From positions 15,061 to 79,060 of IMG/VR virus record IMGVR_UViG_3300042540_000949: 64,000 bases of DNA. The stretch is one strand, 5' to 3'. A program made the position numbers and the translations under genes. This document shows, in pieces, positions 3,061 to 62,000 of the stretch (position 1 is the stretch's first letter; each line of letters starts with the position of its first letter). Below the pieces are notes generated by a model that worked only from the letters and a program-made list of their open reading frames with translations, did not search any database and was not told the DNA's origin. The DNA is from a virus.

Positions 3061-3088
3061 AATATAATATATTATTTTATAATGTCAA
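3061..3088 (-). promoter_or_regulatory. 16-bp-spacer promoter TTGACA-16-TATATT, followed by TAAATA
   Basis: -35 at 3088-3083, -10 at 3066-3061; very AT-rich context lowers specificity. Confidence 0.5.
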
Positions 3089-3092
3089 AAAA

Positions 3093-3623
3093 TTATATTT
3101 CAGAATAACCCAACTTTTTTGCATTATTTAATATTATTGATGGGTCTATTTTTTTAACCAAAACTGCTGGATTACCTTTATACACTCCCCACTCTTCTGT
3201 TTCACCCCTAAGCAAACTTCCTGCGGTTAATAGTACACCCCTTCTTAAAATCGATCCGGGAAGAACTATTGCATTGGTGCTAACATTTGAAAACTCTTCC
3301 ATCGTGACAGGTTTATTTATTTGTGTTCCTTTATATTCATTTGGAATCATTGCCCCAAATAATCCGCTTCCATCAAATCTATCTGAAGCACAAATTATTC
3401 TGGCACCAGCCATAATATTATTAAATCCTTTAACTTCAAAATAAGAATTTTTACCACCTATAATAGTAACATACGGTCCAATATGAACATACGAACCAAT
3501 TTTAATATTGGGTGTGCAGTAAAATCCTTTATCTATTGCAATGTTTGATCCATTTATTGATAGAGAATTTTTTACAAAATTATCATTATCAATTAGTACA
3601 TTTGTACCTTTTATATCAATCAT
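3093..3623 (-). CDS. Hexapeptide-repeat (LbH) O-acetyltransferase
   Basis: IKIGSYVHIGPYVTI repeats; C-terminal GVYKGNPAVLVK. Confidence 0.85.
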   Translation of the reverse strand: MIDIKGTNVLIDNDNFVKNSLSINGSNIAIDKGFYCTPNIKIGSYVHIGPYVTIIGGKNSYFEVKGFNNIMAGARIICASDRFDGSGLFGAMIPNEYKGTQINKPVTMEEFSNVSTNAIVLPGSILRRGVLLTAGSLLRGETEEWGVYKGNPAVLVKKIDPSIILNNAKKLGYSEI

Positions 3624-4204
3624 AAGGATTTTACGAAGTCGTCAACTGTTATAAGATTTAATAGTTTTGTTCTATTTAAATTAAAAAATTCATAATTTAA
3701 ATTGTAGGGGTCTTCTACGTCTATAAGATCTTGGTATCCTTCAGAGATTATACCACACCCGTAATCCGTATCAATGACTCTCATGTACAAATCTTTTCTT
3801 TCAGTTTTTAATTTGACCCAAGCTTTCCAACAATCTCCTGTCCATGGAGCCCCAGACATTGGTTCGGGATACCTTTGTACAAATTCATTGTAAGGATTCA
3901 TGTCGTGGCAAATAATATATCCATTTGTATTTAATATTTTTAAAGAATTTATTATATCAAAATATACTTGTTTGCACCAGTGCAAACCATCAATAAAGAT
4001 TATATCAAATTTTTCTGTATTTTGTTTAAAAAAATCATCGGATGTCATTTTAAACGAAACTGGAACACATGGATTTGGATCTACTGATATTTTATAATCA
4101 CAAACTATCGAATTAAAATTTATTCCGGGCCCCATTCCTATTTCTAGATAGGATTTAGCATTTATCTTGTTTATTAAACGTTGTATTATTTCTGTTCTTA
4201 ACAT
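3620..4204 (-). CDS. Class I SAM-dependent methyltransferase
   Basis: YLEIG, FDIIFIDGLH, GYIICHD motifs. Confidence 0.85.
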   Translation of the reverse strand: MLRTEIIQRLINKINAKSYLEIGMGPGINFNSIVCDYKISVDPNPCVPVSFKMTSDDFFKQNTEKFDIIFIDGLHWCKQVYFDIINSLKILNTNGYIICHDMNPYNEFVQRYPEPMSGAPWTGDCWKAWVKLKTERKDLYMRVIDTDYGCGIISEGYQDLIDVEDPYNLNYEFFNLNRTKLLNLITVDDFVKSL

Positions 4205-4205
4205 A

Positions 4206-5090
4206 TTATGCCTTAAACACTTTCTTTATATTTTCGTTCCACAATATTCCCCCACAAAATAATCCAGATATTTTTCCAAAAAGATAATCGCATTTTCCTA
4301 ACAATTTAGTTTGTATTATAGCTTCTTCACCCAATAAACGGCGATGATTTTCTCTTTTTGTGCTAATTTCTATCCAGCAATGTACTTTGTTATAGTACTC
4401 CGGTGTTTCATCAGTTTTTCTAAAGACATCGGGAATATAATAAGAATTTGGAAAAGTTTTTGACAAGGTTTCTATATAATCACTATCTTCGCTAACAAAA
4501 AATAATTTATTTATTTGAGGATTTTCATCTAGTATTGTTTGTATTTTTTTTACATAATCTTGAATAGTAAAAATTCCATATTCTGGATGAATAGCATCAA
4601 ATTCTGTTCCCCGTATCATCATACCTAGAGTAGTATAGCCTTTTAATTCTTTTTCATAGATTTCATTAACTTTATCTAAAATAAATTGTTTTGGTTTTAT
4701 ATACAATTTATCAACCGTTTGTTGTCTGATAAGTTGATCCGGCTGATCAAAATAATGTTTTGAATGATCTATTATTTCTGATCTCCTTGGAACAGTACAA
4801 TCTATGATAATATCGTCTGGCTGTGGAATATCTTGATCAAACCAATAATCAAATGGGTTACCGTTTGGAACCAATATGCTGGTTTGTCTAGTTTGTCCCG
4901 ATATATCACTCATGTTTGGTGTAAAACCTTCAACCCATGTAGTTCTACCCCAATCAATATATGGGATTCCTTCTCCTTTAGTTTCATGATGGTGGATAAG
5001 ATGCTCTAGACAAATTCTATAATTTGAAAAAAATCCATAACCGTAACCCCATCCATGGTAAATTGGCTGTATTCTATAATATTTTTTCAT
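4206..5090 (-). CDS. Putative fucosyltransferase (NodZ/O-FucT-like GT-B fold)
   Basis: GFFSN, LGMMIRGTE, FFVSED, LLGKCDYLFG motifs; gene context. Confidence 0.6.
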   Translation of the reverse strand: MKKYYRIQPIYHGWGYGYGFFSNYRICLEHLIHHHETKGEGIPYIDWGRTTWVEGFTPNMSDISGQTRQTSILVPNGNPFDYWFDQDIPQPDDIIIDCTVPRRSEIIDHSKHYFDQPDQLIRQQTVDKLYIKPKQFILDKVNEIYEKELKGYTTLGMMIRGTEFDAIHPEYGIFTIQDYVKKIQTILDENPQINKLFFVSEDSDYIETLSKTFPNSYYIPDVFRKTDETPEYYNKVHCWIEISTKRENHRRLLGEEAIIQTKLLGKCDYLFGKISGLFCGGILWNENIKKVFKA

Positions 5091-5503
5091 TTTAAAAATT
5101 CTTTATCTAAGGCCAGTCCTTCATATGGTCCAGTTTTATATTCATAAACAATTGTATTTGGTTCAAGGATAAGGTAATTGTGACCACCGTATAAAGTAAA
5201 ACTTGCATCACCGGGATTTAAAATAACTTCTGTTAACATAGAATCATCAATATCATAAAAAATTGATTTAATTTTACCTTTAATTACAATCCAAGATTCT
5301 TGTGCTATCTGATTTGTATAACTTCTACTTTTTTCTATGTGCTTGTGGGCTTTAAATGTTTGATTATTTTCTAGACACATAAACGAACATTGTAAAAAAT
5401 TATCTTCAGGAATAATGTTTACCCTCGCAGATACATTTTCTAGTCTATGGACAAGATGAAGTAGTTTATTTGGTTCAACTTTAGAATAATATTTTTCAAT
5501 CAT
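5087..5503 (-). CDS. WbuC-like cupin protein
   Basis: HKH, QESWIVIKG, GGHNY, YEYKTGPY; ATG overlaps upstream TGA. Confidence 0.7.
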   Translation of the reverse strand: MIEKYYSKVEPNKLLHLVHRLENVSARVNIIPEDNFLQCSFMCLENNQTFKAHKHIEKSRSYTNQIAQESWIVIKGKIKSIFYDIDDSMLTEVILNPGDASFTLYGGHNYLILEPNTIVYEYKTGPYEGLALDKEFLK

Positions 5504-6297
5504 GCGTCTATTTTTTCCCACCTATTAGGTATAATATCACTTATGTTGTGATAAGATAATACTGGACCAAACCATTGTTTTGGAGCGATCACTCTATTTA
5601 TGTCTTCATTCATCCACGCACCCCACCAACTAAAACTAGAATTAGACATTATACAATTTTTTCCTTCTTTCATTAAAAATAAATCTATGTAATCTTTATT
5701 ATTTTCCATAAAAATATATTGATCACCGATAAAATTATTTTTACATGTTTGAATGTCATCGCTAAAAATAATATAAGGTAACTTAGAATTTAAAAGTTTT
5801 ATACCATTTAAAAAATATGAAATTGGTAAGTTATTGTGAGAATAAGAATTTTTAACATAATCCCCGAGACGGATGTGTATAACATTAAATTGTTTTGGTA
5901 ATGTTTTTAAGATTAGACTTATTTTATTTTTTATATCATCTGTGGGTTCAAAATATTTTAATATTTGATCTCTGTATTTGTAAAAATACTTTTCACTTTG
6001 AAAAAAACCGTTTACTATTGAATTATCTTGTGGTATATGGGGATCATAGTGAAAAGGGTATTCATATTTTGGAATATTATTTTTTGGTGATTCTACTATA
6101 CATTTTTGAAATAGATGCAAGTAGTCATTGGCATAATTTATTTTTGGGTTATGATATTGCTCATCATTTAAAAATTTTAAATGATCAAATAAATTTGGAA
6201 AAGATGGTTGCGTATTATTTTCTTTTGCAAATGCATATGTTGCTGCCATTTGAAAAAGCATATTACACAAACCACCTTTTAAATAACAATATATCAC
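5500..6297 (-). CDS. Alpha-1,2-fucosyltransferase (GT11)
   Basis: GGLCNMLFQ, GFFQSEKYF, HIRLGDY, FSDD, NSSFSWWGAW. Confidence 0.92.
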   Translation of the reverse strand: MIYCYLKGGLCNMLFQMAATYAFAKENNTQPSFPNLFDHLKFLNDEQYHNPKINYANDYLHLFQKCIVESPKNNIPKYEYPFHYDPHIPQDNSIVNGFFQSEKYFYKYRDQILKYFEPTDDIKNKISLILKTLPKQFNVIHIRLGDYVKNSYSHNNLPISYFLNGIKLLNSKLPYIIFSDDIQTCKNNFIGDQYIFMENNKDYIDLFLMKEGKNCIMSNSSFSWWGAWMNEDINRVIAPKQWFGPVLSYHNISDIIPNRWEKIDA

Positions 6298-6301
6298 AGT
6301 A

Positions 6302-10087: not shown

Positions 10088-10713
10088 GACAAATAAACTC
10101 CAAATGGTACAGATGTGACGGCATTATTATGCCCATCGTCTTGATAAAATATTGGGTTATTTACACAATATACTTTATGATTGATCATATCCTCTGCGAT
10201 ACACTCATCACAATAACGATTTATTTCTATACAATTTTCAAGATTTTTTATAGTTGTGTTTACATAATTTTCAGTAATGTAAATTACTGAATGAATGCCC
10301 AACATACCCCATACTTTACTAAAATTATGATTTATTTTTTGACCTCTTGAACCCCCACCAACAGAATTGCCATTTAACATACCCCACACAGAAGTTCCCA
10401 AATAAAACGCATCAGCATCATCTGGAATATTGAATTCTTTTGTAAAGTTGTTTGTGATATTTACATCATCTTCTAAAATCAAAAATGGTGGTTTTGTTTT
10501 TTTAAGTGCTTCAATATGAGCTTTGGCAACCAACGAAGATTTTTGTGTTTGAATCTCCATAAAACTTAAATTGGTTTTATCTAAAATTTCACCATAGATG
10601 TATTCAACATTTAAAGAATGTTTATCAAAAATACTTTGCAATTTTTTATGATTTTGCGTTGCAGTTTTGATTGTTATGAGATAGATTGGTATTGTTGAAA
10701 TATTAATATTCAT
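10084..10713 (-). CDS. Glycosyltransferase (GT25-like)
   Basis: IYLIT, AHIEAL, LILEDD, FYLG, FYQ; start moved to MNINIS. Confidence 0.65.
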   Translation of the reverse strand: MNINISTIPIYLITIKTATQNHKKLQSIFDKHSLNVEYIYGEILDKTNLSFMEIQTQKSSLVAKAHIEALKKTKPPFLILEDDVNITNNFTKEFNIPDDADAFYLGTSVWGMLNGNSVGGGSRGQKINHNFSKVWGMLGIHSVIYITENYVNTTIKNLENCIEINRYCDECIAEDMINHKVYCVNNPIFYQDDGHNNAVTSVPFGVYLS

Positions 10714-11317
10714 AACCTGAATTCGGGGTTGTTCCCCAGTATTGTTTTGCGTATATCTTGTCTGACCCAGCGTACTCAATACCACTATAATGTTTGGGTA
10801 TGAAATACCAACTTGGATAAACTGTTATAGGATATGTGTTTAAGTATACTGTATTAGTCAAAAGAAGTGGTCCTGTGACTGTCCAAGTTTCTAATGGATG
10901 ATAACTCATATTTTCATATGTCGATATTCGATTCATTATGAGTTTCATCAAACGACAGTCCTTAACTGATGCCAAATAACCATTTGACATCAATCCTTTT
11001 CGACACTCTTCATTTTCCCAACAACAAAAAGAATCATTATCAAGAAAAAAATCATCTAAAGGATTTACGCATTCTGCATCTGCATCAATAAAAAACCCTC
11101 CTTCATCGTGAAGAAGTTGATAACGCAAAATATCGGCTTTACCAGCCAAAGATGGACAAAGATCAAATTGCTTCTTGCATTTTATTTCGGGTAAGTTATC
11201 ATCAGTCCATAACTTATGTTGCCAAGAAGGATTTTTGTCTATCCAAGTTTCTATAAATTTTTGTGGTCGTTTTGATTGGTCGCCTAACCAAATTTGATGA
11301 ATAATTTTTGGGATCAT
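10703..11317 (-). CDS. GT32 (OCH1-like, DxD) glycosyltransferase
   Basis: MIPKIIHQIW, ADILRY, GGFFIDAD, TGP. Confidence 0.9.
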   Translation of the reverse strand: MIPKIIHQIWLGDQSKRPQKFIETWIDKNPSWQHKLWTDDNLPEIKCKKQFDLCPSLAGKADILRYQLLHDEGGFFIDADAECVNPLDDFFLDNDSFCCWENEECRKGLMSNGYLASVKDCRLMKLIMNRISTYENMSYHPLETWTVTGPLLLTNTVYLNTYPITVYPSWYFIPKHYSGIEYAGSDKIYAKQYWGTTPNSGYEY

Positions 11318-11330: not shown

Positions 11331-11358
11331 AATATAAGACGTATTAAAGAAATGTCAA
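11331..11358 (-). promoter_or_regulatory. 16-bp-spacer promoter of the glycosylation island (TTGACA-16-TATATT)
   Basis: -35 11358-11353, -10 11336-11331; divergent from the uvsY promoter. Confidence 0.65.
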
Positions 11359-11368
11359 ATATATTTAT

Positions 11369-11396
11369 TTGACTTTATCTAAAGATACTCTATAGT
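11369..11396 (+). promoter_or_regulatory. 16-bp-spacer promoter of uvsY (TTGACT-16-TATAGT)
   Basis: -35 11369-11374, -10 11391-11396. Confidence 0.7.
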
Positions 11397-11431: not shown

Positions 11432-11869
11432 ATGAATCTAGAAGAACTAAAGAACTCTATAACTAAAGACTCTCAAATAGACTCTACAGAACTAGGTATA
11501 GAGTCTCTTAAGATACCTCAAATACACTCCAAGTATCTTAATCAACTTACGGATCTTAAATTACTTTTGACGAAGTACCAACATGACTTTGCCATTTTGC
11601 GTTTGCGTAAATGGAAAATTTATACTGGTAAGGCTTCCGAAGAAGAACTTACAGATTGGAAAGAAGAACCATTTGAACTGGATATTCTGAAGACAGATGT
11701 TGATAAGTTTATGGATGCAGACCCAAAACTTATAGAGCTCAAGTCTAAAATTTCTGTTACGGAGATCAAAATTAAGATGGTTGAAGAATTTTTAAAAGCA
11801 CTCAACAACAGAAACTTTGCCATAAAGTCTGCCATTGAGTGGAACAAAATGATGAATGGTATAGTCTAA
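11432..11869 (+). CDS. uvsY: Recombination mediator UvsY
   Basis: DSQID..L..ESLKIPQIHSKYL, R.FAIKSAIEW; next to uvsW. Confidence 0.9.
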   Translation: MNLEELKNSITKDSQIDSTELGIESLKIPQIHSKYLNQLTDLKLLLTKYQHDFAILRLRKWKIYTGKASEEELTDWKEEPFELDILKTDVDKFMDADPKLIELKSKISVTEIKIKMVEEFLKALNNRNFAIKSAIEWNKMMNGIV

Positions 11870-34348: not shown

Positions 34349-34372
34349 TATTTAGATAAAATTACCTAAATA
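34349..34372. promoter_or_regulatory. Divergent late-type TAAATA promoters (gp48 / gp4)
   Basis: Minus TAAATA 34354-34349, 8 nt before ATG; plus TAAATA 34367-34372, 5 nt before ATG. Confidence 0.65.
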
Positions 34373-37605: not shown

Positions 37606-37633
37606 ATTATACAAGCAACTCCAGGTCAGTCAA
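37606..37633 (-). promoter_or_regulatory. 16-bp-spacer promoter of gp32 (TTGACT-16-TATAAT)
   Basis: -35 37633-37628, -10 37611-37606; leader hairpin CCAAGG-TAGAT-CCTTGG. Confidence 0.7.
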
Positions 37634-37865: not shown

Positions 37866-37893
37866 ACTATATGTCGAATTAATAAAAAAGCAA
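37866..37893 (-). promoter_or_regulatory. 16-bp-spacer leaderless promoter of gp33 (TTGCTT-16-TATAGT-6-ATG)
   Basis: -35 37893-37888, -10 37871-37866, ATG 37859. Confidence 0.65.
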
Positions 37894-40553: not shown

Positions 40554-40583
40554 ACTATACACCCTAATCCTTGACTGTCAAGG
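40554..40583 (-). promoter_or_regulatory. 16-bp-spacer promoter (TTGACA-16-TATAGT) inside palindrome CCTTGAC-T-GTCAAGG
   Basis: -35 40581-40576, -10 40559-40554; inverted repeat 40569-40583. Confidence 0.7.
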
Positions 40584-46426: not shown

Positions 46427-46454
46427 ACTATACTACTTATCCTACTTTTAGCAA
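46427..46454 (-). promoter_or_regulatory. 16-bp-spacer promoter (TTGCTA-16-TATAGT)
   Basis: -35 46454-46449, -10 46432-46427. Confidence 0.6.
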
Positions 46455-48605: not shown

Positions 48606-48633
48606 AATATATCACTCAAAACAGATCTGTCAA
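48606..48633 (-). promoter_or_regulatory. 16-bp-spacer leaderless promoter of guaC (TTGACA-16-TATATT-7-ATG)
   Basis: -35 48633-48628, -10 48611-48606, ATG 48598. Confidence 0.7.
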
Positions 48634-51640: not shown

Positions 51641-51668
51641 TTGACTTTGAAAAACTGAAAGATATACT
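51641..51668 (+). promoter_or_regulatory. 16-bp-spacer promoter (TTGACT-16-TATACT)
   Basis: -35 51641-51646, -10 51663-51668, ATG 51677. Confidence 0.65.
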
Positions 51669-52366: not shown

Positions 52367-52406
52367 AAAGTTTCCTTTTTAGTATTTAGGGATAGGGATG
52401 TGGGAA

Positions 52407-52895: not shown

Positions 52896-53010
52896 GCCCG
52901 AATGATACCACACCCTGGCAGATGTGTCAACCTACATGGTCGAAAGATTTCAAGATTTCTGCCGGCCCCATTGGTTGACACATCCCCGACCATCGGATAC
53001 AATCCGTCCC

Positions 53011-53418
53011 ATGAAGATCCCCGCCCTGCTCATCCCGGCTGATATCACCCGCCCCATGACCACCGTGGAAATCGACACCGACTGCGGCAACCTCGCCTCG
53101 CTCATCGGCTGCGACCTCGTTACGGTTGTCCGTCCCTCCGCGTCCCTCCGCAACATGGTCGATGGCGACTGCACGGTGTGGGTCGATGACGAGGGGCTGC
53201 TGCGCGAGAACCCCCGTCAGAACATCCGGGCGTTCCTGATGACCGAGCAGCACCTCGTCGGCAATGCTCTCCTCACGGGCGTTGACAACGCAGCAGGCAC
53301 GATCACCCCGCTCCAGTTCGTGCTGCCTGCCTGCACCGTCCTGAACATCATCGAACAGAACGCGCAGGGGCTGCACCGCATCTATGCGGCCATCGACGCG
53401 GCCAACGCCAACGCTTGA
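53011..53418 (+). CDS. DUF3846-like early protein
   Basis: LIGC..V, WVDDEGLL, N..A, LVGNALL.G; promoter 52975-53003. Confidence 0.8.
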   Translation: MKIPALLIPADITRPMTTVEIDTDCGNLASLIGCDLVTVVRPSASLRNMVDGDCTVWVDDEGLLRENPRQNIRAFLMTEQHLVGNALLTGVDNAAGTITPLQFVLPACTVLNIIEQNAQGLHRIYAAIDAANANA

Positions 53419-53449
53419 CACATCCCCGCCCATCAGGTACAATCCTCCC

Positions 53450-53782
53450 ATGCACACCACCCGCTCCTCCATCGCCCTCCCCGTCGCCGCCAACACCGCC
53501 CGTCGCTACGACGAGGCCATGACCTACCTCGCCAACGGGTGGGTCGAGCTGACCTACCGCAAGGTGGGCGGCGAGGTGGTGACGCGCCTCGCCACGCGCA
53601 ACCCCACGCTCATCGACACCTTCGGTGATCGTTGGTCGCTTGAGGCGGTGCGGAAGTCCGACGATCCGTGGGGCGACAACATCGTCTACTGGGATCACGC
53701 AAAGGGCGGCATCCGCTCCTGCCGCGCCGACGAGGTCGTGGGCATGGCGATCCCCGGCGACTGCCCGGAGGTCAACCACTAA
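53450..53782 (+). CDS. WYL_2 (DUF2693)-like protein
   Basis: V.LTYRK..GE...R.ATRN, YWD..KGGIRSC; promoter 53415-53443. Confidence 0.75.
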   Translation: MHTTRSSIALPVAANTARRYDEAMTYLANGWVELTYRKVGGEVVTRLATRNPTLIDTFGDRWSLEAVRKSDDPWGDNIVYWDHAKGGIRSCRADEVVGMAIPGDCPEVNH

Positions 53783-53819
53783 GGTTGACACATCCCGCCT
53801 CTCACGGTACAATCCTCCC

Positions 53820-54035
53820 ATGACCATCACCCCCGCCGACAACCCCTGCAACTGCCGCGCCTGCGGTGCCCTCATCCTCAACGAAGTGTCCTCGTTGTGC
53901 GAGGACTGCGAGGCCGATATGAACGCCTACTACGATGAGCGCGAGGACGCAGAGCGCGACCGTCAGATGACCGAGGACAACTACATCCGCGAGAACTACG
54001 AAACCCCCATCGGTGAGCTGTACGGGGGAGACTGA
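53820..54035 (+). CDS. Small acidic CxxC...CxxC protein
   Basis: CRACG...CEDC; promoter 53785-53813. Confidence 0.7.
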   Translation: MTITPADNPCNCRACGALILNEVSSLCEDCEADMNAYYDEREDAERDRQMTEDNYIRENYETPIGELYGGD

Positions 54036-54040
54036 GCCAA

Positions 54041-54106
54041 GGGTGCATGGGATAGCCGAAAAGGATTCGTCCCTGCTCCGATTCGTTCGGAGCTAGGCTC
54101 CCACCC
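54041..54106 (+). ncRNA. Candidate structured RNA (three-way junction, TTCG loops)
   Basis: GGGTG..GGGA.AGCC / GGCTCCCACCC closing stem; GGA-TTCG-TCC; GCTCCGA-TTCGT-TCGGAGC. Confidence 0.35.
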
Positions 54107-54238
54107 AAGCCCAGGTCAACCAGGTCGAACCCCGGACAGGACGCAGAAACTTCAAACCGTTTGCTTGACACATCCCACCCGATACGGTACAATCACCGTA
54201 ACACCCAACCGCCCCATAGGGGCAAAGAGACTGAACCC

Positions 54239-54610
54239 ATGCCGACCGACTACACGCAGCCCGTCACCCTCGTCCGCCTCGCTCACCCCACGAACCCCTC
54301 CATCGTTGAGTTCGCGTACACGCCCCGCTACTCGCGGTGGACGATGCTGAAGTTCAACCCCGCGAAGGCGCAGACGGCATCGGACGCTTGGATCCGCTAC
54401 TGCGAGGACAACCTGTTCAAGCCCTCGCACTTCGATTCGATCAGCCACGGGGCGACCAACCTGTTCCACACCGACATCCTGAAGATCGTCGGCCACCTCA
54501 CCCTGAACGGGTGGCAGATCACGCAGAACCGCCCGTACAACGGGCCGAGCGGGTACTACGAGTGCAACGCTGCGGCAGCAGCGGAGAGCGAAGACCTCGT
54601 CCTGTTCTGA
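54239..54610 (+). CDS. Hypothetical early protein (leadered)
   Basis: Promoter 54165-54193; leader hairpin GCCCC-ATA-GGGGC; GC3-biased frame. Confidence 0.7.
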   Translation: MPTDYTQPVTLVRLAHPTNPSIVEFAYTPRYSRWTMLKFNPAKAQTASDAWIRYCEDNLFKPSHFDSISHGATNLFHTDILKIVGHLTLNGWQITQNRPYNGPSGYYECNAAAAAESEDLVLF

Positions 54611-54702
54611 TCCACGGTCTAGGAACGGAGGGGGGCCGGGGCGTTCCCGGTTCCCCTCTCCCTTCCCTTGACACATCACCCCGAACCTGATACCATCCAC
54701 CC

Positions 54703-54915
54703 ATGAAGAACGAAACCCTCTGCATCATCTCTGCCGTGTCCCTCTTGGCCCTCGCAGCCGTGATTGAGTATGCCCCTGCTTTCAGCGGGATTGAGCGGTG
54801 GATGAACCGCAACCCCGTTTGGATGCTTGGCATCCTCGCAGTCTGCTTGATCCCGTTTGGAATCGGCCTCTACCGTCAGGTCATCACCCCCATCCTCGTC
54901 AACCGGAAGGGTTGA
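54703..54915 (+). CDS. Small two-TM membrane protein
   Basis: Promoter 54668-54696; two hydrophobic segments. Confidence 0.7.
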   Translation: MKNETLCIISAVSLLALAAVIEYAPAFSGIERWMNRNPVWMLGILAVCLIPFGIGLYRQVITPILVNRKG

Positions 54916-54946
54916 CTCATCACCCCCAACCAGGTACAATCCCACC

Positions 54947-55147
54947 ATGCCCTCTCTCTCCACCAGAAACCTCGTCAGCCACTACCTCGTCATCGGCACG
55001 GACAACGAAGGAAACTTCCGCCGTCTGAAGGTGTTCACCCGAGCTGATGCCGAGGTCATCGGCAGCACCTACATGATCCGCGCCCGTGTGTGGGCCGTCA
55101 ACCCCCACGGCAAGAAGCGTCTAGAGCGTCGATACGTTTCGTATTGA
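54947..55147 (+). CDS. Small basic early protein
   Basis: Promoter 54912-54940, ATG 6 nt later. Confidence 0.7.
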   Translation: MPSLSTRNLVSHYLVIGTDNEGNFRRLKVFTRADAEVIGSTYMIRARVWAVNPHGKKRLERRYVSY

Positions 55148-55178
55148 CACATCACCCCGAACCTGATACCATACACCC

Positions 55179-55436
55179 ATGAGCAATCCCAACACCAACC
55201 CCGCATTGGATCGCATCCGTTCCTACACCATCATCCACGCCACCGCCCTGCGCGAGTGGGTGAACGACAGCCCGACCGACTCCCGCAGCGCCGAGCTGAT
55301 GGAGATCGTCCGAGACTGCGAGAGGAACTACCTGATCCTCGCCCTGTTCCGGACGATGGAGCCGACGCTCGCAGACTTCAACGATGCGTTCGACGCATTC
55401 TGCGCCGCAGCGGATCAGGCGATCACGAACAACTAG
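55179..55436 (+). CDS. Hypothetical early protein
   Basis: Promoter 55144-55172 (29 nt identical to 54668-54696). Confidence 0.72.
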   Translation: MSNPNTNPALDRIRSYTIIHATALREWVNDSPTDSRSAELMEIVRDCERNYLILALFRTMEPTLADFNDAFDAFCAAADQAITNN

Positions 55437-55522
55437 GGTGGTTGGGACGGGGGAGACTCCCAGGGTGCGGAGTCTCCCCCAACACCCTTGACACAACCTC
55501 CAACACAGGATACAATACTCAC

Positions 55523-55786
55523 ATGACAACCACCGCAATCAAGACCGCCCGTGAACTTCGCGCCTCCCTCTCCACGGGGGCCGTCTGCCTCGTCGCCTTC
55601 CGCAAGATCAGCGGCGAGATCACCGAGCGCTACATCACCCGCAATCAGGACTACATCCCCGAGGATGCGCGTCCGCAGTATGTGAAGGCCGAGAACCCCC
55701 ACTACATCACCGCATGGGATGTGGAGGGAAAGCATTGGATTTCCTTCCACGAATCGAACGCCCTCGCGTGGGAAGAGCATCAGTAA
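55523..55786 (+). CDS. WYL_2 (DUF2693)-like protein
   Basis: VAFRKISGE..ER..TRN...IP, AWDVEGKHWISF; promoter 55488-55516. Confidence 0.78.
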   Translation: MTTTAIKTARELRASLSTGAVCLVAFRKISGEITERYITRNQDYIPEDARPQYVKAENPHYITAWDVEGKHWISFHESNALAWEEHQ

Positions 55787-55824
55787 GCCTTGACACATCC
55801 GCACCCCAACGGTACAATACACCC

Positions 55825-56097
55825 ATGACCACCCGAACCACCAAGCAGGATCTTGAACTCCGCGTCGAAAACCTCCGCAAGATGACGGGTAGGAAGTTCT
55901 ACCTGACGGGAGCCTACGGAGGCTGGCAGTTGGCCGAGGAGGTCGATGGCGGAAGCCACGGCATCACCCCCGGATTCGTGAGCAAGCGCCAACTGGAAGA
56001 TCGCCTGAACTCCATCCTCACCGGGCTGCTCATCGGGGAGCGGATGGAGAAGGAGCGCAAGCGCCGCGAGGACGAGCACCCCTATGCGTACAACTGA
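55825..56097 (+). CDS. Hypothetical early protein
   Basis: GAYGGWQL, GFVSKRQL; promoter 55790-55818. Confidence 0.72.
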   Translation: MTTRTTKQDLELRVENLRKMTGRKFYLTGAYGGWQLAEEVDGGSHGITPGFVSKRQLEDRLNSILTGLLIGERMEKERKRREDEHPYAYN

Positions 56098-56266
56098 ATC
56101 GCCCCAGGCGAACATCCGCCTTGCGATCACCTTGTGCCGAGACATCCGGCACATCCTCGCATCCCGAAACTTCCCTTCCAAGAATCTTCAGGAGCGAGTC
56201 CGCAAGGCAATCGAACGGGTGTCGCAGACGGAAGAAGAAATCGAAAACCTTGAAGTCGGTGCTTGA
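56084..56266 (+). CDS. Hypothetical 60-aa protein
   Basis: Overlaps previous stop; its TGA lies in the next -35 box. Confidence 0.6.
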   Translation: MRTTESPQANIRLAITLCRDIRHILASRNFPSKNLQERVRKAIERVSQTEEEIENLEVGA

Positions 56267-56297
56267 CCCAACCCCCCGGACAAGATACAATCAACCC

Positions 56298-56522
56298 ATG
56301 CTATTCGACAAACTCAATCAGTCAGGGATTCACCGTGGCGTGTTCGCCGTCCTGCTTGGCATCATGTGGCTCATGCCCGTAGTGCTTGGATGGATCGCCT
56401 ACGAAGCTGCTCACCACCACATGAAGATCCTGCTTGGGTTCTGTGCGGTGGGATGCCTGCTTGAACTCTACGCGATCACCTTCCTGCTTGGGGGCCTGAA
56501 GTTCATTCGCTCACGGGCTTGA
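56298..56522 (+). CDS. Small two-TM membrane protein
   Basis: Promoter 56263-56291; hydrophobic segments. Confidence 0.7.
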   Translation: MLFDKLNQSGIHRGVFAVLLGIMWLMPVVLGWIAYEAAHHHMKILLGFCAVGCLLELYAITFLLGGLKFIRSRA

Positions 56523-56553
56523 CACATCCGGAAAGAAAGAATATAATCCGGAC

Positions 56554-56691
56554 ATGAACCACAGGCCGGCAAAGTTCGTACACGACGCCTTCCGCGAAGG
56601 GCAGCGGCTCCGCTCCAAGACTTGGGGAAAGAAGAGCCGCTGCCCTCGGAAGGACAGGCGCGAGGCACGGAAGGAGCTGCAGCGGGCCTGA
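56554..56691 (+). CDS. 45-aa basic peptide
   Basis: Manual ORF MNHRPAKFVHDAFREGQRLRSKTWGKKSRCPRKDRREARKELQRA behind TTGACA-17-TATAAT (56519-56547). Confidence 0.65.
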   Translation: MNHRPAKFVHDAFREGQRLRSKTWGKKSRCPRKDRREARKELQRA

Positions 56692-56835
56692 ACTACTATC
56701 AGGCGGCTCAGAACACTAGGATGGTACAAAGACCTTGGATGGTGCGGGGCCTGATAGTAGCTCCCCGCGACCTGGACGGCACTCAGCCGGTCATCGGACG
56801 GCACACAAAAACTTCAAAAACTTTGCCCATGTCAC
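56692..56835. repeat. Inverted-repeat module, copy 1
   Basis: CTACTATCAGGC 56693-56704 / GCCTGATAGTAG 56749-56760; ATCGGAC 56793. Confidence 0.8.
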
Positions 56836-56870
56836 TTGACGTATCCAGCTCTACCCCTTATACTACGCAC

Positions 56871-57083
56871 ATGGATCACACCCCCTACGACGATGCGACC
56901 GAGGAAATCACCCGAGAGGAGGCCATCCGTGAACTCATGGATGAAGGCTACTCGCGTGACGAGGCTACCCGCATGATCGGGGACTACGAGGCTGATGAGT
57001 ACGAGCCCAAGTACCTGTCGGACTTCCCCGATGAGTGGTCTGATGACATTGCCCTGTTCGTTGACCCGGAGGACTTCGAATGA
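56871..57083 (+). CDS. Highly acidic 70-aa protein (DNA-mimic candidate)
   Basis: 26 D/E versus 5 K/R; promoter 56836-56864. Confidence 0.72.
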   Translation: MDHTPYDDATEEITREEAIRELMDEGYSRDEATRMIGDYEADEYEPKYLSDFPDEWSDDIALFVDPEDFE

Positions 57084-57382
57084 TCTGCATTCGCATGAAG
57101 TACCTGCACACTCCAATCGCCAACCAAAGCTGGAAGCGCAGGCGTGAGCGGGAGATTCTTCGCATCGTGACGGGAGCCGTGGCATATGCGTTCGTGGCCC
57201 GTGACTTTCCCCGAACGGAGGCCCAGTTCGACTGCAAGCAAGGATTCGCCCTCACTTCCATCCGGGTGTTCGTGGACGGGATTGACGAGGAGATGGCCAA
57301 GCGTGTCGTGAACTACCTGAACAACAACAGGAATGTCTACGCAAACTACTTGACGCAACCCGAACTATGTGATACCATGTGA
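57080..57382 (+). CDS. Hypothetical protein
   Basis: ATGA coupling to the previous gene. Confidence 0.6.
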   Translation: MICIRMKYLHTPIANQSWKRRREREILRIVTGAVAYAFVARDFPRTEAQFDCKQGFALTSIRVFVDGIDEEMAKRVVNYLNNNRNVYANYLTQPELCDTM

Positions 57383-57965: not shown

Positions 57966-58006
57966 CTTGACAGCACCGTGTCCCCCCGGTTATAATAGGG
58001 GGATGA

Positions 58007-58079
58007 GCCTCTGTGGCGCAGCTGGTAGCGCAGTAGACTTTTAATCTATTGGTCGTGGGTTCGAACCCCACCGGAGGCA
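58007..58079 (+). tRNA. tRNA-Lys(UUU)
   Basis: Acceptor GCCTCTG/CGGAGGC, anticodon loop CTTTTAA, GGTTCGAACC; no encoded CCA. Confidence 0.93.
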
Positions 58080-58081
58080 TT

Positions 58082-58609
58082 ATGAACGACGAGATCGAAC
58101 AACTCAAGAAGAAGATCGCCTACCTTGAGGAACAAGTAGACCGATGGGAAGATGATGTCCTGCGTCTGATGAAGGAACGCAACGAAGCACGGAAAGAGGT
58201 TTGCCTTTGGCAAGGACTTGATACAGGAAAAAAGTCCGAAGAAGTTGCTAATGTTCGTGGTTGGGATTGTTTCAACCAACCCAAAACAGAACAGGACAAG
58301 GCAATGGATCGCCTCGCAGAACTTGATGAGGAACTTGGTCTGAACCCCATTCCGGAATCTCACTACATCAAGACCCTTCAGGCATATGATCGCCTCGCCA
58401 TCGTCATGGAGGCCATCATGGAACATTGGTTGGAAGGCAATGCCAACCCACCGAAGGAACTCATCGATGCCTATTACGATGTCAAGGAGGACATCAACGA
58501 CCATCTGAACGTGGATCGTCTGCATGAGCAGGTGATCCCGGCGAACTCTGAATTTTACGACAAAATTCAGAAAAAGTTTTCTGTTGACGACACCCCGAAT
58601 CTGTGGTAG
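58082..58609 (+). CDS. Hypothetical coiled-coil protein
   Basis: ATG 2 nt after the tRNA-Lys discriminator; ERNEARKEVC..RGWDCF; stop TAG forms the next -10. Confidence 0.7.
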   Translation: MNDEIEQLKKKIAYLEEQVDRWEDDVLRLMKERNEARKEVCLWQGLDTGKKSEEVANVRGWDCFNQPKTEQDKAMDRLAELDEELGLNPIPESHYIKTLQAYDRLAIVMEAIMEHWLEGNANPPKELIDAYYDVKEDINDHLNVDRLHEQVIPANSEFYDKIQKKFSVDDTPNLW

Positions 58610-58619
58610 AATGTGTTAC

Positions 58620-58704
58620 GGGATTGTGGCGGAATCGGCATACGCAGCAGACTCAAAATCTGCCGACCCTTAAAGTCTTGTGGGTTCAAGTCCCACCAAT
58701 CCCA
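58620..58704 (+). tRNA. tRNA-Leu(CAA)
   Basis: Acceptor GGGATTG/CAATCCC, loop CTCAAAA, long variable arm, GGTTCAAGTCC. Confidence 0.93.
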
Positions 58705-58707
58705 TTT

Positions 58708-58781
58708 GTTCTCGTAGCTCAGTTGGATAGAGCAGCCGCCTTCTAAGCGGCAGGTCGTTGGTTCGAATCCAACCGGGAACG
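58708..58781 (+). tRNA. tRNA-Arg(UCU)
   Basis: Acceptor GTTCTCG/CGGGAAC, loop CTTCTAA, GGTTCGAATCC. Confidence 0.94.
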
Positions 58782-58817
58782 CTTGACAGACCCCGAAAGA
58801 CAGGATACAATACACCC

Positions 58818-58991
58818 ATGAGCAAGACCAAGACCAAGAACCAAACGATCTCTGAAAAGTTGACTCGCATCGATGATTATGTCTGCGACATCTGGAACGA
58901 TGTCGATGAAGGCAGGCTATCCCCGAATCAGATCGGGGATCGACTTGACAAGGTCATCAGGATGCTTGGCGAACTTCAGGATTCCCTGTGA
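58818..58991 (+). CDS. Hypothetical 57-aa protein
   Basis: Promoter 58783-58811, ATG 6 nt later. Confidence 0.68.
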   Translation: MSKTKTKNQTISEKLTRIDDYVCDIWNDVDEGRLSPNQIGDRLDKVIRMLGELQDSL

Positions 58992-59098
58992 GGACACACA
59001 TGAATATTATATAAGGAGTGTTTGGTGGAAACATCAAAAACCGCACAGAGGCATTCTGCGAATGCACGGTTGACCGCTAGCCGTACAACTAGCGATTC

Positions 59099-59174
59099 GG
59101 GAAGGTGGCTGAAAAGTAGTTAGAGCGCGTGCCTTATAAGCGCGAATATGTGGGTGCAACTCCCGCCCTTCCCA
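59099..59174 (+). tRNA. tRNA-Ile(UAU) with atypical T-loop
   Basis: Acceptor GGGAAGG/CCTTCCC+A, stem CGTGC/GCGCG, loop CTTATAA, T-loop TGCAACT. Confidence 0.78.
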
Positions 59175-59210
59175 TTTGACACAACCCCAAACAGAGAGTA
59201 GAATATAACC

Positions 59211-59510
59211 ATGCCAATCGCACTACCAAAAGAAGAATATCTCGCCCCGCAGATCTTCTCATCGTTCATGATCGAAAACAACGATCTCATCGTCCGCGTC
59301 GAAGAGCCCTTCGGCATCATTGAGATGGATCTGTCGTTTGCTGTCCGTCTGGATCCCAAGACTGGCTTGGCGTCCACGGACTCAGATGACATTCTCTTTT
59401 CCATTGCCGATGACTCGGAAGGCAATGAGCATGAGGTAGACCCGGATTGGGTTATGGGTTGGATCATCCGCACCCTGAACCCATACCTCCGCGAGAAGTT
59501 CTCCGTCTGA
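59211..59510 (+). CDS. Acidic hypothetical protein
   Basis: Promoter 59176-59204, ATG 6 nt later. Confidence 0.72.
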   Translation: MPIALPKEEYLAPQIFSSFMIENNDLIVRVEEPFGIIEMDLSFAVRLDPKTGLASTDSDDILFSIADDSEGNEHEVDPDWVMGWIIRTLNPYLREKFSV

Positions 59511-59548
59511 CACTTGACACAACCCCGAACAAGAGGTACAATACACAC

Positions 59549-59859: not shown

Positions 59860-59896
59860 CAGGGACTCCCACGCTTCGGGGAGTCCCTGTTCTTTT
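59860..59896 (+). terminator. Intrinsic terminator
   Basis: CAGGGACTCCC...GGGAGTCCCTG-TTCTTTT. Confidence 0.85.
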
Positions 59897-60060: not shown

Positions 60061-60095
60061 TTGCAGCATCCCCGGAAATGTCGTACCATATGCGT

Positions 60096-61370
60096 ATGAG
60101 CAACATCGACAACCGTAAGGCAAACTTCCTCGCAGCCCTGAAGCAGATCGCAGGCGAAGCGACCAGCGTGGCCGATGCCATCTTCAGCCGTGACGATTGC
60201 ATCACCGCCTGCCGTGACTCCGCTGCGCCTGCCTACACCGTCCTTCCTGCTTGGCTCGTCCAAGACCCGTCCCGCCGCGCAGGTCGCGGCCTATACAGAA
60301 TCCCGGAAATGGTTTCCGTGGAAATCGAAACGGACGGGATGGAAGATTCGTCCGAAAGTTCCTTGACCGATCCCCAAACTTGTGATACCATTACGAACAT
60401 GAGCAGCAGCAACTACAACCTCGTCGCATCCATGCCCGATGTCTCCCTCGTCCCGATGAAGAACGACACTTTCGTTCCGTGGGGCCACTACGATGACATC
60501 AGCACCATCCTCGCGTCCAAGCAGTTCGCGCCCGTCTACATCACGGGTCTGTCGGGCAACGGCAAGACCACGATGATCGAACAGATCTGCGCCAACACCG
60601 GGCGTGAGTGCATCCGCGTCAACATCACTGCCGAAACCGACGAGGACGATCTCATCGGCGGCTTCCGACTCATCAACGGCGAAACCAAGTTCGTCTACGG
60701 TGGCGTGGTTCAGGCCATGCAGCGCGGTGCCGTCCTGCTGTTGGACGAGATCGACTTGGGGACGGAGCGGATGATGTGCCTTCAGCCCGTGCTTGAGGGC
60801 AAGGGAATCTTCATCAAGAAGATCGGCGTTTTCGTCAAGCCCGCGCAGGGGTTCAATGTGGTCGCCACGGCCAACACGAAGGGCAAGGGCGAGTCTGATC
60901 GGTTCGTCGGCACCCGCTGCTTGAACGAGGCGTTCGTGGATCGGTTCTCCTATTGGTTTGAGCAGGAGTACGCGGATCGCAACATCGAAGCGCGCATCAT
61001 CATCCGCAAGATGAAGGCGTATGGCAAGGAGGACAAGGAGTTCGCGCAGTACCTCGTCAAGTGGGCGGAAACGATCCGCTTGGGCTTCAAGGAGGGCGGC
61101 TTGGATGACATCATCACGACCCGCCGCTTGGAGGAGGTCTGCAAGGCGTTCGCCATCTTCAACGACAAGCAGAAGGCGATCAAGTTGACGCTCACGCGAT
61201 TCGACGGTGCTACGCAGGAGGCGTTCTTCACCCTCTACACCAAGATCGACCCGACGATCCTCCCGACCCCGGAGGGGATGGACAAGAACAACCTCGGCCC
61301 GTCCGAAGCCTATCGTGCAGAGCAGGCGAATCAGAATCCGCCTGACACCAACTACGCCCTCAACGCCTAA
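60096..61370 (+). CDS. MoxR/CobS-like AAA+ ATPase with an N-terminal accessory domain
   Basis: GLSGNGKT, RVNIT.ETDEDDLIGG, LLLDEID, ATANTKG.G, NEAFVDRF, TRRL; promoter 60061-60089. Confidence 0.92.
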   Translation: MSNIDNRKANFLAALKQIAGEATSVADAIFSRDDCITACRDSAAPAYTVLPAWLVQDPSRRAGRGLYRIPEMVSVEIETDGMEDSSESSLTDPQTCDTITNMSSSNYNLVASMPDVSLVPMKNDTFVPWGHYDDISTILASKQFAPVYITGLSGNGKTTMIEQICANTGRECIRVNITAETDEDDLIGGFRLINGETKFVYGGVVQAMQRGAVLLLDEIDLGTERMMCLQPVLEGKGIFIKKIGVFVKPAQGFNVVATANTKGKGESDRFVGTRCLNEAFVDRFSYWFEQEYADRNIEARIIIRKMKAYGKEDKEFAQYLVKWAETIRLGFKEGGLDDIITTRRLEEVCKAFAIFNDKQKAIKLTLTRFDGATQEAFFTLYTKIDPTILPTPEGMDKNNLGPSEAYRAEQANQNPPDTNYALNA

Positions 61371-61388
61371 AGAAAGGAGGAACCAACA

Positions 61389-61616
61389 ATGCCGTACATG
61401 AACAAGCGCAATCGTTTCATCGCTGCTGCCAAGCAGTACGCAGAGGCAAACCTGAACGGAGACTTCAGCAACTTCAAGAAGTCCGATCTCATGGTTGTGG
61501 CACAGTCCATCAACATGAAGGGAATCCCGACTTGGGTTGTCAAGGAGTACGCGAGTGCCGTGAGCCGTGGGATCTACGATCTCTCGTCGCTCATCAACAA
61601 CACCGCAACCGTCTGA
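61389..61616 (+). CDS. Stand-alone paralog of the AAA+ N-terminal domain
   Basis: NKRNRFIAAAKQ...IPTWVV...SRGIYDL versus NRKANFLAALKQ...LPAWLV...GRGLYRI; AAGGAGG SD. Confidence 0.75.
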   Translation: MPYMNKRNRFIAAAKQYAEANLNGDFSNFKKSDLMVVAQSINMKGIPTWVVKEYASAVSRGIYDLSSLINNTATV

Positions 61617-61677
61617 GCTGTTGCCATGAGGGGAGGGGCGGACTAAACATCCCCCCTCCCCATTCGCAGGAATAAAA

Positions 61678-61765
61678 TCCGTTGGAGCTAAACTACACCC
61701 TCTGGGTGACGGCTAGCCTAATGCTCCCGAAATGCTTGGTGTTCTGCAGCACCAGGTTGAACGGA
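61678..61765 (+). ncRNA. Candidate multi-stem structured RNA
   Basis: TCCGTT/AACGGA enclosing GGAGC/GCTCC, CACCC-TCT-GGGTG and TGGTG/CACCA. Confidence 0.35.
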
Positions 61766-61783
61766 AAGGAACGGAGCCTTTCC

Positions 61784-61809
61784 CCCCGGATTCTTATCCG
61801 GGGTTTTTT
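61784..61809 (+). terminator. Intrinsic terminator
   Basis: CCCCGGA-TTCTTA-TCCGGGG-TTTTTT. Confidence 0.85.
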
Positions 61810-61812
61810 ATT

Positions 61813-61965
61813 ACTACTATCAGCGGGTCTCTAAGGACCCGCTGATTCTCGCAGGACACGAAATAATTTTAAGGACGCTCCCTGATAGTAGCTCGTACCT
61901 GCGCCTGGAGTTGCCGGCCAGCTTATCGGACTCACAAAAAAACTTGTAAACTTCGACTATGTGGG
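61813..61965. repeat. Inverted-repeat module, copy 3
   Basis: ACTACTATCAG 61813 / CTGATAGTAG 61882-61891; inner stem 61819-61846; ATCGGAC 61925. Confidence 0.8.
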
Positions 61966-62000
61966 TTGCAGCTTCCCCCGATATGTGCTACCATATGCGT

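Follow-up and report, generated by a model that had tools for sequence, protein, structure and literature searches.

A one-base-pair spacer split between core and early promoters of an uncultured lake T4-like phage: promoter families or timing code?

The analysed DNA, hereafter the window, is a stretch of 64,000 nucleotides (positions 15,061 to 79,060 of the IMG/VR virus record IMGVR_UViG_3300042540_000949) from an uncultured T4-like lake phage. Its promoters fall into three types (Table 1): early cassette promoters in a GC-rich block, host-like -35/-10 promoters ahead of gp55, gp33, gp32, uvsY, the gp45 region and some accessory genes, and T4-type late promoters CTAAATA ahead of structural genes. 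Of the 19 copies of this TATAAATA-like late motif in the 79-kb contig, 13 have a start codon on their own strand 0-80 nt downstream, and the late machinery is encoded by gp55 (phrog_234), gp33 (phrog_254) and gp45 (phrog_223). The presence of these three regulators and the three gene groups (host-takeover ORFs with tRNAs, replication and late-regulator genes, structural genes) correspond to the T4 cascade.

Table 1. Promoters and tRNA genes of the window and its immediate surroundings. Positions refer to the window unless marked "genome"; a minus-strand promoter is named by the 5' base of its -35 box.
Feature	Position	Strand	Sequence and context
16-bp promoter	3061..3088	-	TTGACA-16-TATATT; in AT-rich glycan island, ahead of gene 2443-3045
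16-bp promoter	11331..11358	-	TTGACA-16-TATATT; ahead of glycan-island gene 1 (10703-11317)
16-bp promoter	11369..11396	+	TTGACT-16-TATAGT; ahead of uvsY (11432-11869), then uvsW
16-bp promoter	37606..37633	-	TTGACT-16-TATAAT; ahead of gp32 (36703-37560)
16-bp promoter	37866..37893	-	TTGCTT-16-TATAGT; 6 nt to ATG of gp33 (37626-37859)
16-bp promoter	40554..40581	-	TTGACA-16-TATAGT; ahead of 78-aa ORF (40288-40524)
16-bp promoter	46427..46454	-	TTGCTA-16-TATAGT; ahead of phrog_527 ORF (46099-46404)
16-bp promoter	48606..48633	-	TTGACA-16-TATATT; 7 nt to ATG of guaC-like dehydrogenase (47564-48598)
16-bp promoter	51641..51668	+	TTGACT-16-TATACT; 8 nt to ATG of endonuclease VII/HNH-like gene (51677-52198)
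Extra 16-bp promoter	genome 14624	-	TTGACA-16-TACACT; ahead of gp55, just outside the window
Extra 16-bp promoter	genome 10968	-	TTGATT-16-TATAAT; 6 nt to ATG of 50-aa ORF upstream of gp45, just outside the window
Two divergent late promoters	34355..34372	both directions	CTAAATA; 8 nt and 5 nt before start codons
Divergent 17-bp cassette promoter pair	52902..53003		52930 (-) TTGACA-17-TATCAT; 52975 (+) TTGACA-17-TACAAT
Twelve 17-bp cassette promoters	53415..57378	+	-35 at 53415, 53785, 54165, 54668, 54912, 55144, 55488, 55790, 56263, 56519, 56836, 57350
Sole 18-bp promoter	57967..57996	+	TTGACA-18-TATAAT; ahead of tRNA-Lys(UUU) 58007-58079
Four 17-bp promoters	58584..59542	+	58584 (ahead of tRNA-Leu, tRNA-Arg), 58783, 59176, 59514
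tRNA-Ile	59099-59174		early array
Two 17-bp promoters, CobS-like AAA+ gene	60061..60391	+	60061 TTGCAG-17-TACCAT; internal 60363 TTGACC-17-TACCAT
17-bp promoter	61966..61994	+	TTGCAG-17-TACCAT; ahead of large ORF, ~62001 to window end

The nine promoters that the first-pass annotation had placed in the AT-rich part all read TTG(ACA/ACT/CTT/CTA)-16 bp-TATA(T/G/A/C)T, with TATAGT as -10 box four times, TATATT three times, and TATAAT and TATACT once each; the uvsY promoter is divergent to that of glycan-island gene 1. The labels UvsY, gp32 and gp33 (phrog_254, E 2e-13) were confirmed, "guaC" could be assigned to the dehydrogenase family phrog_9582 and "HNH" to an endonuclease VII-like family. The spacer sequences of the core promoters are unrelated to one another, which makes the core set the truly non-random part of the split.

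The GC-rich part (52.9-62 kb) harbors 22 promoters, of which 21 have the proposed 17-bp spacer and one has 18 bp, and the -10 box is TAC(A/C)AT in 16 of the 22. Across 51-64 kb, 29 promoter-like sites compare with 6.2 +/- 2.1 in shuffled sequences. The twelve consecutive cassette promoters mostly follow the scheme TTGACAcatcc...TAC(A/C)AT, 6 nt, ATG. Early cassettes lack a Shine-Dalgarno site and their ATG lies 6 nt past the -10 box, thus predicting leaderless early messages; the ORFs of the array mostly belong to no known family. In other lake populations the 18-bp promoter has a 17-bp spacer, a C run having lost 1 bp at 57982; the ortholog of this promoter in the relative L140 is likewise 18 bp.

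Both sets combine a TTGACA-like -35 box with a TAnnnT -10 box at a distance of 16-18 bp, are enriched over chance and lie upstream of genes. An unbiased scan covering 67 kb of AT-rich contig sequence (TTGnnn/TAnnnT, spacers of 13-21 bp, at least 10 of 12 matches, start codon on the same strand 3-120 nt after the -10 box) retrieved nine sites with a 16-bp spacer, none with 17 bp, two with 18 bp and 0-1 for other lengths, and both 18-bp sites are alternative readings of 16-bp sites. Omitting the gene filter left 16 bp as the sole clear excess (16 sites versus 5-13 for other spacers), and a second scan of this type gave 13 sites versus 3-9. Fisher's test on the window (9:0 versus 0:21) yields p = 7e-8, with the reservation that the 21 early promoters, having sequence in common, do not count as independent observations. 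This mutual dependence, and the fact that the original sites were chosen by eye, would be in line with chance or an artefact of selective spotting. Such an explanation is hardly credible, however, because the unbiased scan reproduces the split without any counter-example, the other spacer lengths provide an internal background and the split recurs in five other genomes. The difference between core promoters with 16 bp and early promoters with 17 bp is real in this phage.

The bias is also strong in five long relatives. Eight core promoters have 16 bp in 33 of 38 orthologous cases and 17 bp in the other five; the uvsY orthologs measure 16, 16, 16, 17 and 16 bp, and the promoter of the 78-aa ORF has 16 bp in all five. 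Among 51 unique variants of the gp32 promoter 44 have a 16-bp spacer, six have 17 bp and one has 18 bp, and the flanking non-coding segments of the same variants vary by 6 nt. The gp32 promoter of three cultured cyanomyophages has 17-18 bp, in contrast to the 16 bp found here, which is indicative of a derived trait of this clade. GC-rich early arrays are more variable: about 75% of their promoters have 17 bp across the clade, but the array of L148 mostly has 16 bp (16:17 = 13:3), as does its AT-rich part, and that of L140 is mixed, 8:4 towards 16 bp. Early-gene orthology is patchy among the relatives, and six 17-bp promoters of the window (55488, 55790, 56836, 57350, 60061, 60363) have 16-bp orthologs in L140, L148, L143 or L149; for the CobS-like gene, 16-bp orthologs of both promoters come from L148, L140, L143 and L149. 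The proposal that spacer length defines the promoter classes is contradicted by these arrays, by the flips at orthologous early genes and by the 17 or 18 bp of core promoters in about 13% of orthologous cases. The occurrence of 16 and 17 bp at the same genes of related phages suggests that the split marks two promoter lineages and is no demonstrated timing code.

Each genome's array exhibits its own consensus directly after the -35 box. In one lake population, represented by a contig from run X7, precisely the 476 bp that separate two identical 29-bp promoters, 54668 and 55144, are missing (joint 54667 to 55144, 29 shared letters). A uniform 17-bp spacer fits concerted evolution of promoter cassettes. 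The closest parallel is the promoter-early stem-loop (PeSL) cassettes of the T4-type phages RB49/phi1, T4/PST and KVP40/nt-1 (PMC2839356, PMC4122927), for whose arrays fixed N17 spacers have been reported (PMC4122927). In both systems a strong sigma-70-like early promoter with an invariant N17 spacer recurs many times ahead of small ORFs without annotated function in a variable region, and genes are lost or gained when the copies recombine, here exemplified by the 476-bp deletion. In contrast to PeSL, a strong hairpin directly upstream is found at only two of the 22 promoters (54668, 55488), a Shine-Dalgarno site is lacking at the predicted leaderless messages, the array forms a GC-rich block within an AT-rich genome, and 16 instead of 17 bp is fixed in some relatives.

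Base composition differs between the two sets. Mean spacer GC in the window is 0.30 in the core and 0.59 in the early part, and within GC-rich arrays A-tracts are more frequent in the 16-bp spacers than in the 17-bp ones (0.51 versus 0.22). Both observations agree with a split that is a by-product of composition, AT-rich spacers needing 16 bp and GC-rich ones 17 bp for the same helical phase. This explanation is very improbable, because it is largely refuted by the equal spacer GC of 16-bp (0.595) and 17-bp (0.603) promoters within GC-rich arrays and by the AT-rich 17-bp cassettes of L153, a distant relative without a GC-rich block; the 16-bp core spacers at gp32 and 40581, moreover, have 50-56% GC. 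The discriminators differ as well, with a GC content of 0.31 in the 16-bp and 0.64 in the 17-bp class. Two sigma-70 sets that differ in spacer length, spacer GC and discriminator GC are reminiscent of E. coli, where such differences shift promoter activity without extra factors (PMC9303308, PMC8695583) and spacer GC can time sigma-70 promoters via supercoiling, the effect of spacer length being minor (PMC8695583). The AT-rich discriminators of the 16-bp class are unlike the GC-rich ones of E. coli 16-nt stable-RNA promoters, a comparison with a polymerase that may not match the host's.

The spacer is also coupled to the -10 box: TATAnT accounts for 54% of the 16-bp and TACAAT for 60% of the 17-bp promoters in GC-rich arrays. 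Some related sigma factors tolerate other spacers, and the coupling would suit a use of two host sigma factors, such as the principal one and a close alternative with a slightly different spacer and -10 preference. We regard this as quite unlikely, since both types share the same TTGAC(A/T) -35 box and are swapped at orthologous genes.

A true temporal code, in which the polymerase would be switched from a preference for 17 bp to one for 16 bp, either by an early protein of the phage or by relaxation of its DNA during replication, so as to create a middle class without MotA/AsiA, is the strongest competitor and still an improbable one. It would account for the core and early bias kept in all six genomes, for a gp32 promoter that stays at 16 bp while spacer sequence and flanking segment lengths change, for 17-bp cassettes in an AT-rich relative, and for the identity of the genes behind 16-bp promoters, which form the T4 "middle" set (gp32, gp33, gp55, uvsY, gp45 region). 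About 20 early ORFs without known function could be added, and supercoiling alone has been documented to time promoters (PMC8695583). Such a code is difficult to reconcile with the 16 bp in both parts of L148, the mixture within one array of L140, early genes with either spacer in different phages and the tolerance of 17 or 18 bp at core promoters; in E. coli, spacer length contributes little to the supercoiling response and 16-nt spacers defy a simple twist model (PMC8695583, PMC9303308). The phage sigma factor or polymerase modifier implied by the first-pass annotation was not found either: motA and asiA had no match at E <= 1, sigma region 4 was absent and gp55 was the only match to sigma region 2 in the contig (44% complete) and the five relatives (52-76% complete). 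The more specific version, that 16-bp/TATAnT promoters are a clade-wide middle class used efficiently only after an early protein or DNA relaxation has moved the spacer optimum by 1 bp, appears slightly less probable still; if true, it would amount to a MotA/AsiA-independent middle-gene switch acting by promoter geometry and not by a new box.

In T4 middle promoters, the place of the -35 box is taken by a MotA box (TGCTT core) 11-13 bp from the -10 box. We rejected an assignment of the core set to this type, given TTGAC(A/T) at seven of the nine sites and the missing motA and asiA matches in the incomplete contigs of this phage and five relatives; at the other two sites, TTGCT(T/A), the hexamers are still 16 bp apart, which exceeds the T4 range by at least 1 bp. 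Unlike in the T4 cascade with its AsiA/MotA sigma appropriation, the middle-type promoters retain their -35 box and no MotA box occurs at T4 spacing. Doron et al. 2016 (ISME J) reportedly found host-like promoters ahead of middle (replication) genes in T4-like cyanophages without motA/asiA, whose early genes are said to use a novel, non-sigma-70-like element. Our phage resembles them in the three promoter tiers, the sigma-70-like -35/-10 boxes ahead of replication and recombination genes, and the gp55/gp33 late promoters. It differs in its early genes, which also have canonical -35/-10 boxes, and in tiers that are defined from sequence alone. The three-tier scheme proposed at the outset stands with respect to the promoter types, whereas its novelty does not: three temporal classes without MotA/AsiA have been described before for T4-like cyanophages (PMC5780444, citing Doron et al. 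2016).

The explanation that we narrowly favor is that the split reflects two evolutionary families of ordinary host sigma-70/sigma-A promoters, both read by the unmodified host RNA polymerase. The early array would consist of a repeated unit of promoter and leaderless gene, whose near-identical promoters recombine as in PeSL, so that a single geometry could spread through the whole array: 17 bp with TACAAT here and in most relatives, 16 bp in some. The core promoters (gp55, gp33, gp32, uvsY, gp45 region, guaC-like and others) would each be held at 16 bp/TATAnT by purifying selection, a clade-specific geometry that probably serves to adjust how strong the promoters are or how fast they open. 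Separate families with exchangeable geometry would make spacer length a family marker and not a timing signal. The canonical boxes and the spacers within 16-18 bp of both sets speak for this explanation, as do the changes of spacer length at orthologous promoters, the signs of concerted evolution in the arrays, the equal spacer GC of both lengths in GC-rich arrays and the failure to find a switch factor in the contig and the five relatives. On the other side stand the strength of the bias and its repetition in six genomes, and eleven unrelated core promoters that all have 16 bp, one short of the consensus optimum, for which tuning is our inference. The derived 16 bp at gp32 compared with the cultured cyanomyophages points in the same direction, and the coupling of spacer and -10 box might stem from two functional optima as well as from common ancestry. 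The contigs do not cover whole genomes, and the early ORFs without known families might conceal a modifier of RNA polymerase.

Late genes would be turned on via gp55, gp33 and gp45 at the CTAAATA promoters. The core promoters may, in addition, respond differently to supercoiling through their AT-rich spacers and discriminators. If core genes are delayed, translational gating by the tRNAs of the early array is more likely and better supported than spacer timing: core genes may depend on these tRNAs for AAA, AGA, ATA and TTG codons. Per 1000 codons, core genes contain 44.7 AAA, 19.1 AGA, 21.8 ATA and 23.8 TTG, early genes 1.7, 0.7, 0 and 11.4, respectively, and the four early-array tRNAs (Lys, Leu, Arg, Ile), which lie behind early-type promoters, read exactly these four codons.

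The phage genome harbors two families of host-type promoters that differ by 1 bp in spacing, in the type of the -10 box and in base composition. All nine promoters with a 16-bp spacer that the first-pass annotation had described for the AT-rich part (the core set, including those of uvsY, gp32 and gp33) were recovered exactly, and its account of the GC-rich block holds as well: the early array comprises 22 repeated promoters, of which 21 have a 17-bp spacer and a single one has 18 bp; the -10 box reads TAC(A/C)AT in 16 of the 22. The proposed spacer scan was conducted without bias on sites that precede a start codon of the same strand by at most 120 nt, with spacers of 13 to 21 bp serving as their own background. 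At a threshold of at least 10 of 12 matches it returned nine 16-bp sites and no 17-bp site in the AT-rich part, where two 18-bp sites are merely alternative readings of 16-bp sites. Two extra 16-bp promoters are located directly outside the window, one before gp55 and one before a 50-aa ORF preceding gp45. Together with the scan they document that the 16/17 split is correct and, if anything, understated. Its surprising half is the core set, whose 11 promoters have unrelated spacer sequences and a uniform spacer length of 16 bp. The fixed 17 bp of the early promoters is more readily understood, given that they share sequence beyond both boxes (TTGACAcatcc); an N17 spacer is likewise present in the arrays of promoter-early stem-loop (PeSL) cassettes of other T4-type phages (PMC4122927).

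The window represents bases 15061-79060 of one 79-kb viral contig with a completeness of 44% (CheckV). It belongs to a T4-like myophage encoding gp23, gp20, terminase, UvsW, UvsY and gp32, and the contig also carries gp33, gp55, gp45, gp44 and gp46/47. The nearest cultured phages are marine cyanomyophages (gp23 identity about 53%), the CobS-like protein shows 50-57% to pelagiphage and cyanophage versions, and a megablast search with 10 kb gave no match among cultured phages. The source sequence is present in lake-water metagenomes of 18 studies. The GC content is 25-45% until about 52.5 kb and 50-64% thereafter to the contig end. A chimeric assembly was rejected, because both compartments occur together on single contigs of relatives, CobS, which is typical of T4-like phages, sits in the GC-rich part, and an independent lake contig covers a segment around the boundary (see table). 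The early array lacks a Shine-Dalgarno site at any of its 22 cassettes, and the ATG follows 6 nt after the -10 box in most of them; we infer a host of high GC content able to translate leaderless mRNA. The boundary itself is marked by direct repeats of GGGAC(C/T)C, a motif that also forms the stems of two hairpins elsewhere.

Positions of the features discussed in the text (window coordinates)
Feature	Position	Strand	Remark
Back-to-back promoters, glycan island and uvsY	11331-11396		divergent -35 boxes 10 bp apart
Back-to-back promoters	40554-40600
Palindrome TTGACTGTCAA	40571-40581		-35 box on both strands
gp32 leader hairpin	37571-37591	-	GGCC(A/G)AGG-loop-CCT(T/C)GG
GGGAC(C/T)C hairpin	51591-51619
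GGGAC(C/T)C hairpin	59860-59889
GGGAC(C/T)C, 7 direct copies in 95 bp	52407-52501	+	non-coding gap, directly before early array
Segment on independent lake contig	52092-52755
Early ORF, DUF3846	53011-53418
Early ORF, WYL_2	53450-53782
Early ORF, WYL_2	55523-55786
Joint in X7 contig	54667 to 55144		476 bp missing
Promoters identical over 29 bp	54668; 55144
1-bp deletion	57982		C run in tRNA-Lys promoter spacer
Four tRNA genes	58007-59174
Late CTAAATA	11866	+	4-10 nt before start codon
Late CTAAATA	29878	-	4-10 nt before start codon
Late CTAAATA	32669	-	4-10 nt before start codon
Late CTAAATA	34355	-	4-10 nt before start codon
Late CTAAATA	34366	+	4-10 nt before start codon

Relatives were reached via gp32 (408 related IMG/VR loci) and CobS (21), and five long contigs of 95-137 kb were analysed in full length. 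The 16/17 bias is clade-wide: the ratios of 16-bp to 17-bp promoters in GC-rich contexts of relatives are 3:25, 0:13, 0:5 and 4:14, and 16 bp is the sole clear excess over background in AT-rich contexts. The exact cassette pattern TTGACACATC-N13-TACAAT yielded only single, probably fortuitous, matches in viral contigs. For eight orthologous core promoters (gp55, the ORF upstream of gp45, uvsY, gp32, gp33, a 78-aa ORF, phrog_527 and guaC) we counted 33 cases with 16 bp and five with 17 bp. Among 51 unique sequences upstream of gp32 the spacer measures 16 bp in 44, 17 bp in six and 18 bp in one; its sequence was exchanged repeatedly, and the adjoining non-coding segments differ by 6 nt in length. 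This preservation of length amid changing sequence and neighborhood is indicative of purifying selection on the spacer length of the gp32 promoter. The corresponding spacers of three cultured cyanomyophages are 17, 17 and 18 bp long, which marks the 16 bp before gp32 as a trait of the lake clade.

Nevertheless, the comparative data suggest that spacer geometry is not the timing signal. The early array of the related contig L148 favors 16 bp by 13:3, as does its AT-rich part, and that of L140 does so by 8:4. Orthologs of the 17-bp early genes of the window, including both CobS promoters, have 16 bp in L140, L148 or two further relatives (L143, L149). Mixed spacers in both regions, the observation that according to the first-pass annotation would speak against promoter classes separated by spacer length, are hence found among relatives but not in this genome. 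Within the GC-rich arrays 54% of the 16-bp promoters carry TATAnT and 60% of the 17-bp promoters TACAAT, a coupling that may reflect either shared descent or two co-adapted optima. Natural "swap" variants exist, namely 16-bp early arrays of the L148 type and gp32 promoters with 17 or 18 bp.

Composition and helical twist were rejected as the cause of the split, because 16- and 17-bp promoters within the GC-rich arrays have equal spacer GC and because the distant relative L153, which has no GC-rich block, possesses AT-rich 17-bp early cassettes. The postulated phage factor that switches spacer preference found no support: searches of this contig and the five relatives (52-76% complete) found no AsiA, MotA domain or sigma region 4, and gp55 is the only match to sigma region 2 in the same set. 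The site sequences and the lack of motA and asiA matches in these contigs also led us to reject a reading of the core set as T4 middle promoters. Pfam searches with 20 early ORFs revealed no function bearing on RNA polymerase; one protein matches DUF3846, two small ones match WYL_2 (PF10902, Sm-like SH3 barrel), and the other 17 have no significant match. Given this yield, an RNA polymerase modifier could still be hidden among the early ORFs.

Timing may instead arise at the level of translation. The codons AAA, AGA, ATA and TTG occur 44.7, 19.1, 21.8 and 23.8 times per 1000 in core genes; the early-gene values are 1.7, 0.7, 0 and 11.4. Exactly these codons are read by the four phage tRNAs (Lys-UUU, Arg-UCU, Ile-UAU, Leu-CAA), whose genes are located downstream of early-type promoters within the early array. 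As judged from the sequence, the early tRNAs may represent a translational timer that unlocks the AT-rich core genes: even if both promoter families fired at once, core proteins would be delayed until the four tRNAs had built up. Spacer GC (0.59 versus 0.30) and discriminator GC (0.64 versus 0.31) likewise set the early family apart from the core family. In E. coli such GC differences shift promoter activity with DNA supercoiling, with a minor effect of spacer length (PMC8695583), and 16-nt spacers behave atypically (PMC9303308). The 5' leader of gp32 harbors a conserved hairpin between promoter and ATG. Its stem reads AAGG/CCTT in 24, GAGG/CCTC in 24 and GGGG/CCCC in one of 51 unique relatives, and these paired variants indicate compensatory changes. 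By analogy with T4 gp32 autoregulation the hairpin may serve as a translational operator; it may also be an RNA-stabilising element.

The early cassettes probably evolve in concert. The sequence directly after the -35 box has its own consensus in the array of each genome, which argues for spread within genomes rather than 20 independent optimisations. Contigs of four other lake metagenomes were aligned to the early-array region. In one contig of the lake run X7 (depth 363) two small early genes are missing, with 29 letters common across the joint, and the promoters at both ends of the gap are identical over exactly these 29 bp. This exact placement between two identical promoters is direct evidence of promoter-mediated gene gain or loss, a process shown for PeSLs (PMC2839356). 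The early cassettes resemble PeSLs in this respect, but 20 of the 22 lack a stem-loop; with one upstream of just two promoters, true PeSL membership was rejected. A 1-bp deletion in all four lake runs shortens the spacer of the only 18-bp promoter to 17 bp, thus documenting that natural spacer indels occur and persist.

Among described systems, PeSL cassettes come closest, together with the host-like middle promoters known from T4-like cyanophages lacking MotA, on which Doron et al. reportedly presented promoter results in 2016. For the separation of early from middle transcription in T4-like phages without MotA/AsiA, this abundant lake group provides a clean natural contrast. If geometry mattered for timing, it would constitute a new, minimal regulatory principle; if it is irrelevant, the group still illustrates concerted promoter-cassette evolution in the wild and points to a likely translational timer. 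The proposed three-tier code is retained in part: there are three types of promoter, and T4 "middle" genes are preceded by host-like ones, but a code of spacer length is unsupported and improbable rather than disproved, since relatives mix 16 and 17 bp. The third type is CTAAATA, with 19 copies; in 13 of them a start codon on the same strand follows at a distance of 0-80 nt, mostly that of a structural gene. This type is consistent with the gp55, gp33 and gp45 genes of the contig. Several copies lie so close to the start codon (see table) that many late messages are predicted to be leaderless, too. At two places promoters stand back to back, and the palindrome at one of them overlaps a late CTAAATA on its plus-strand side.
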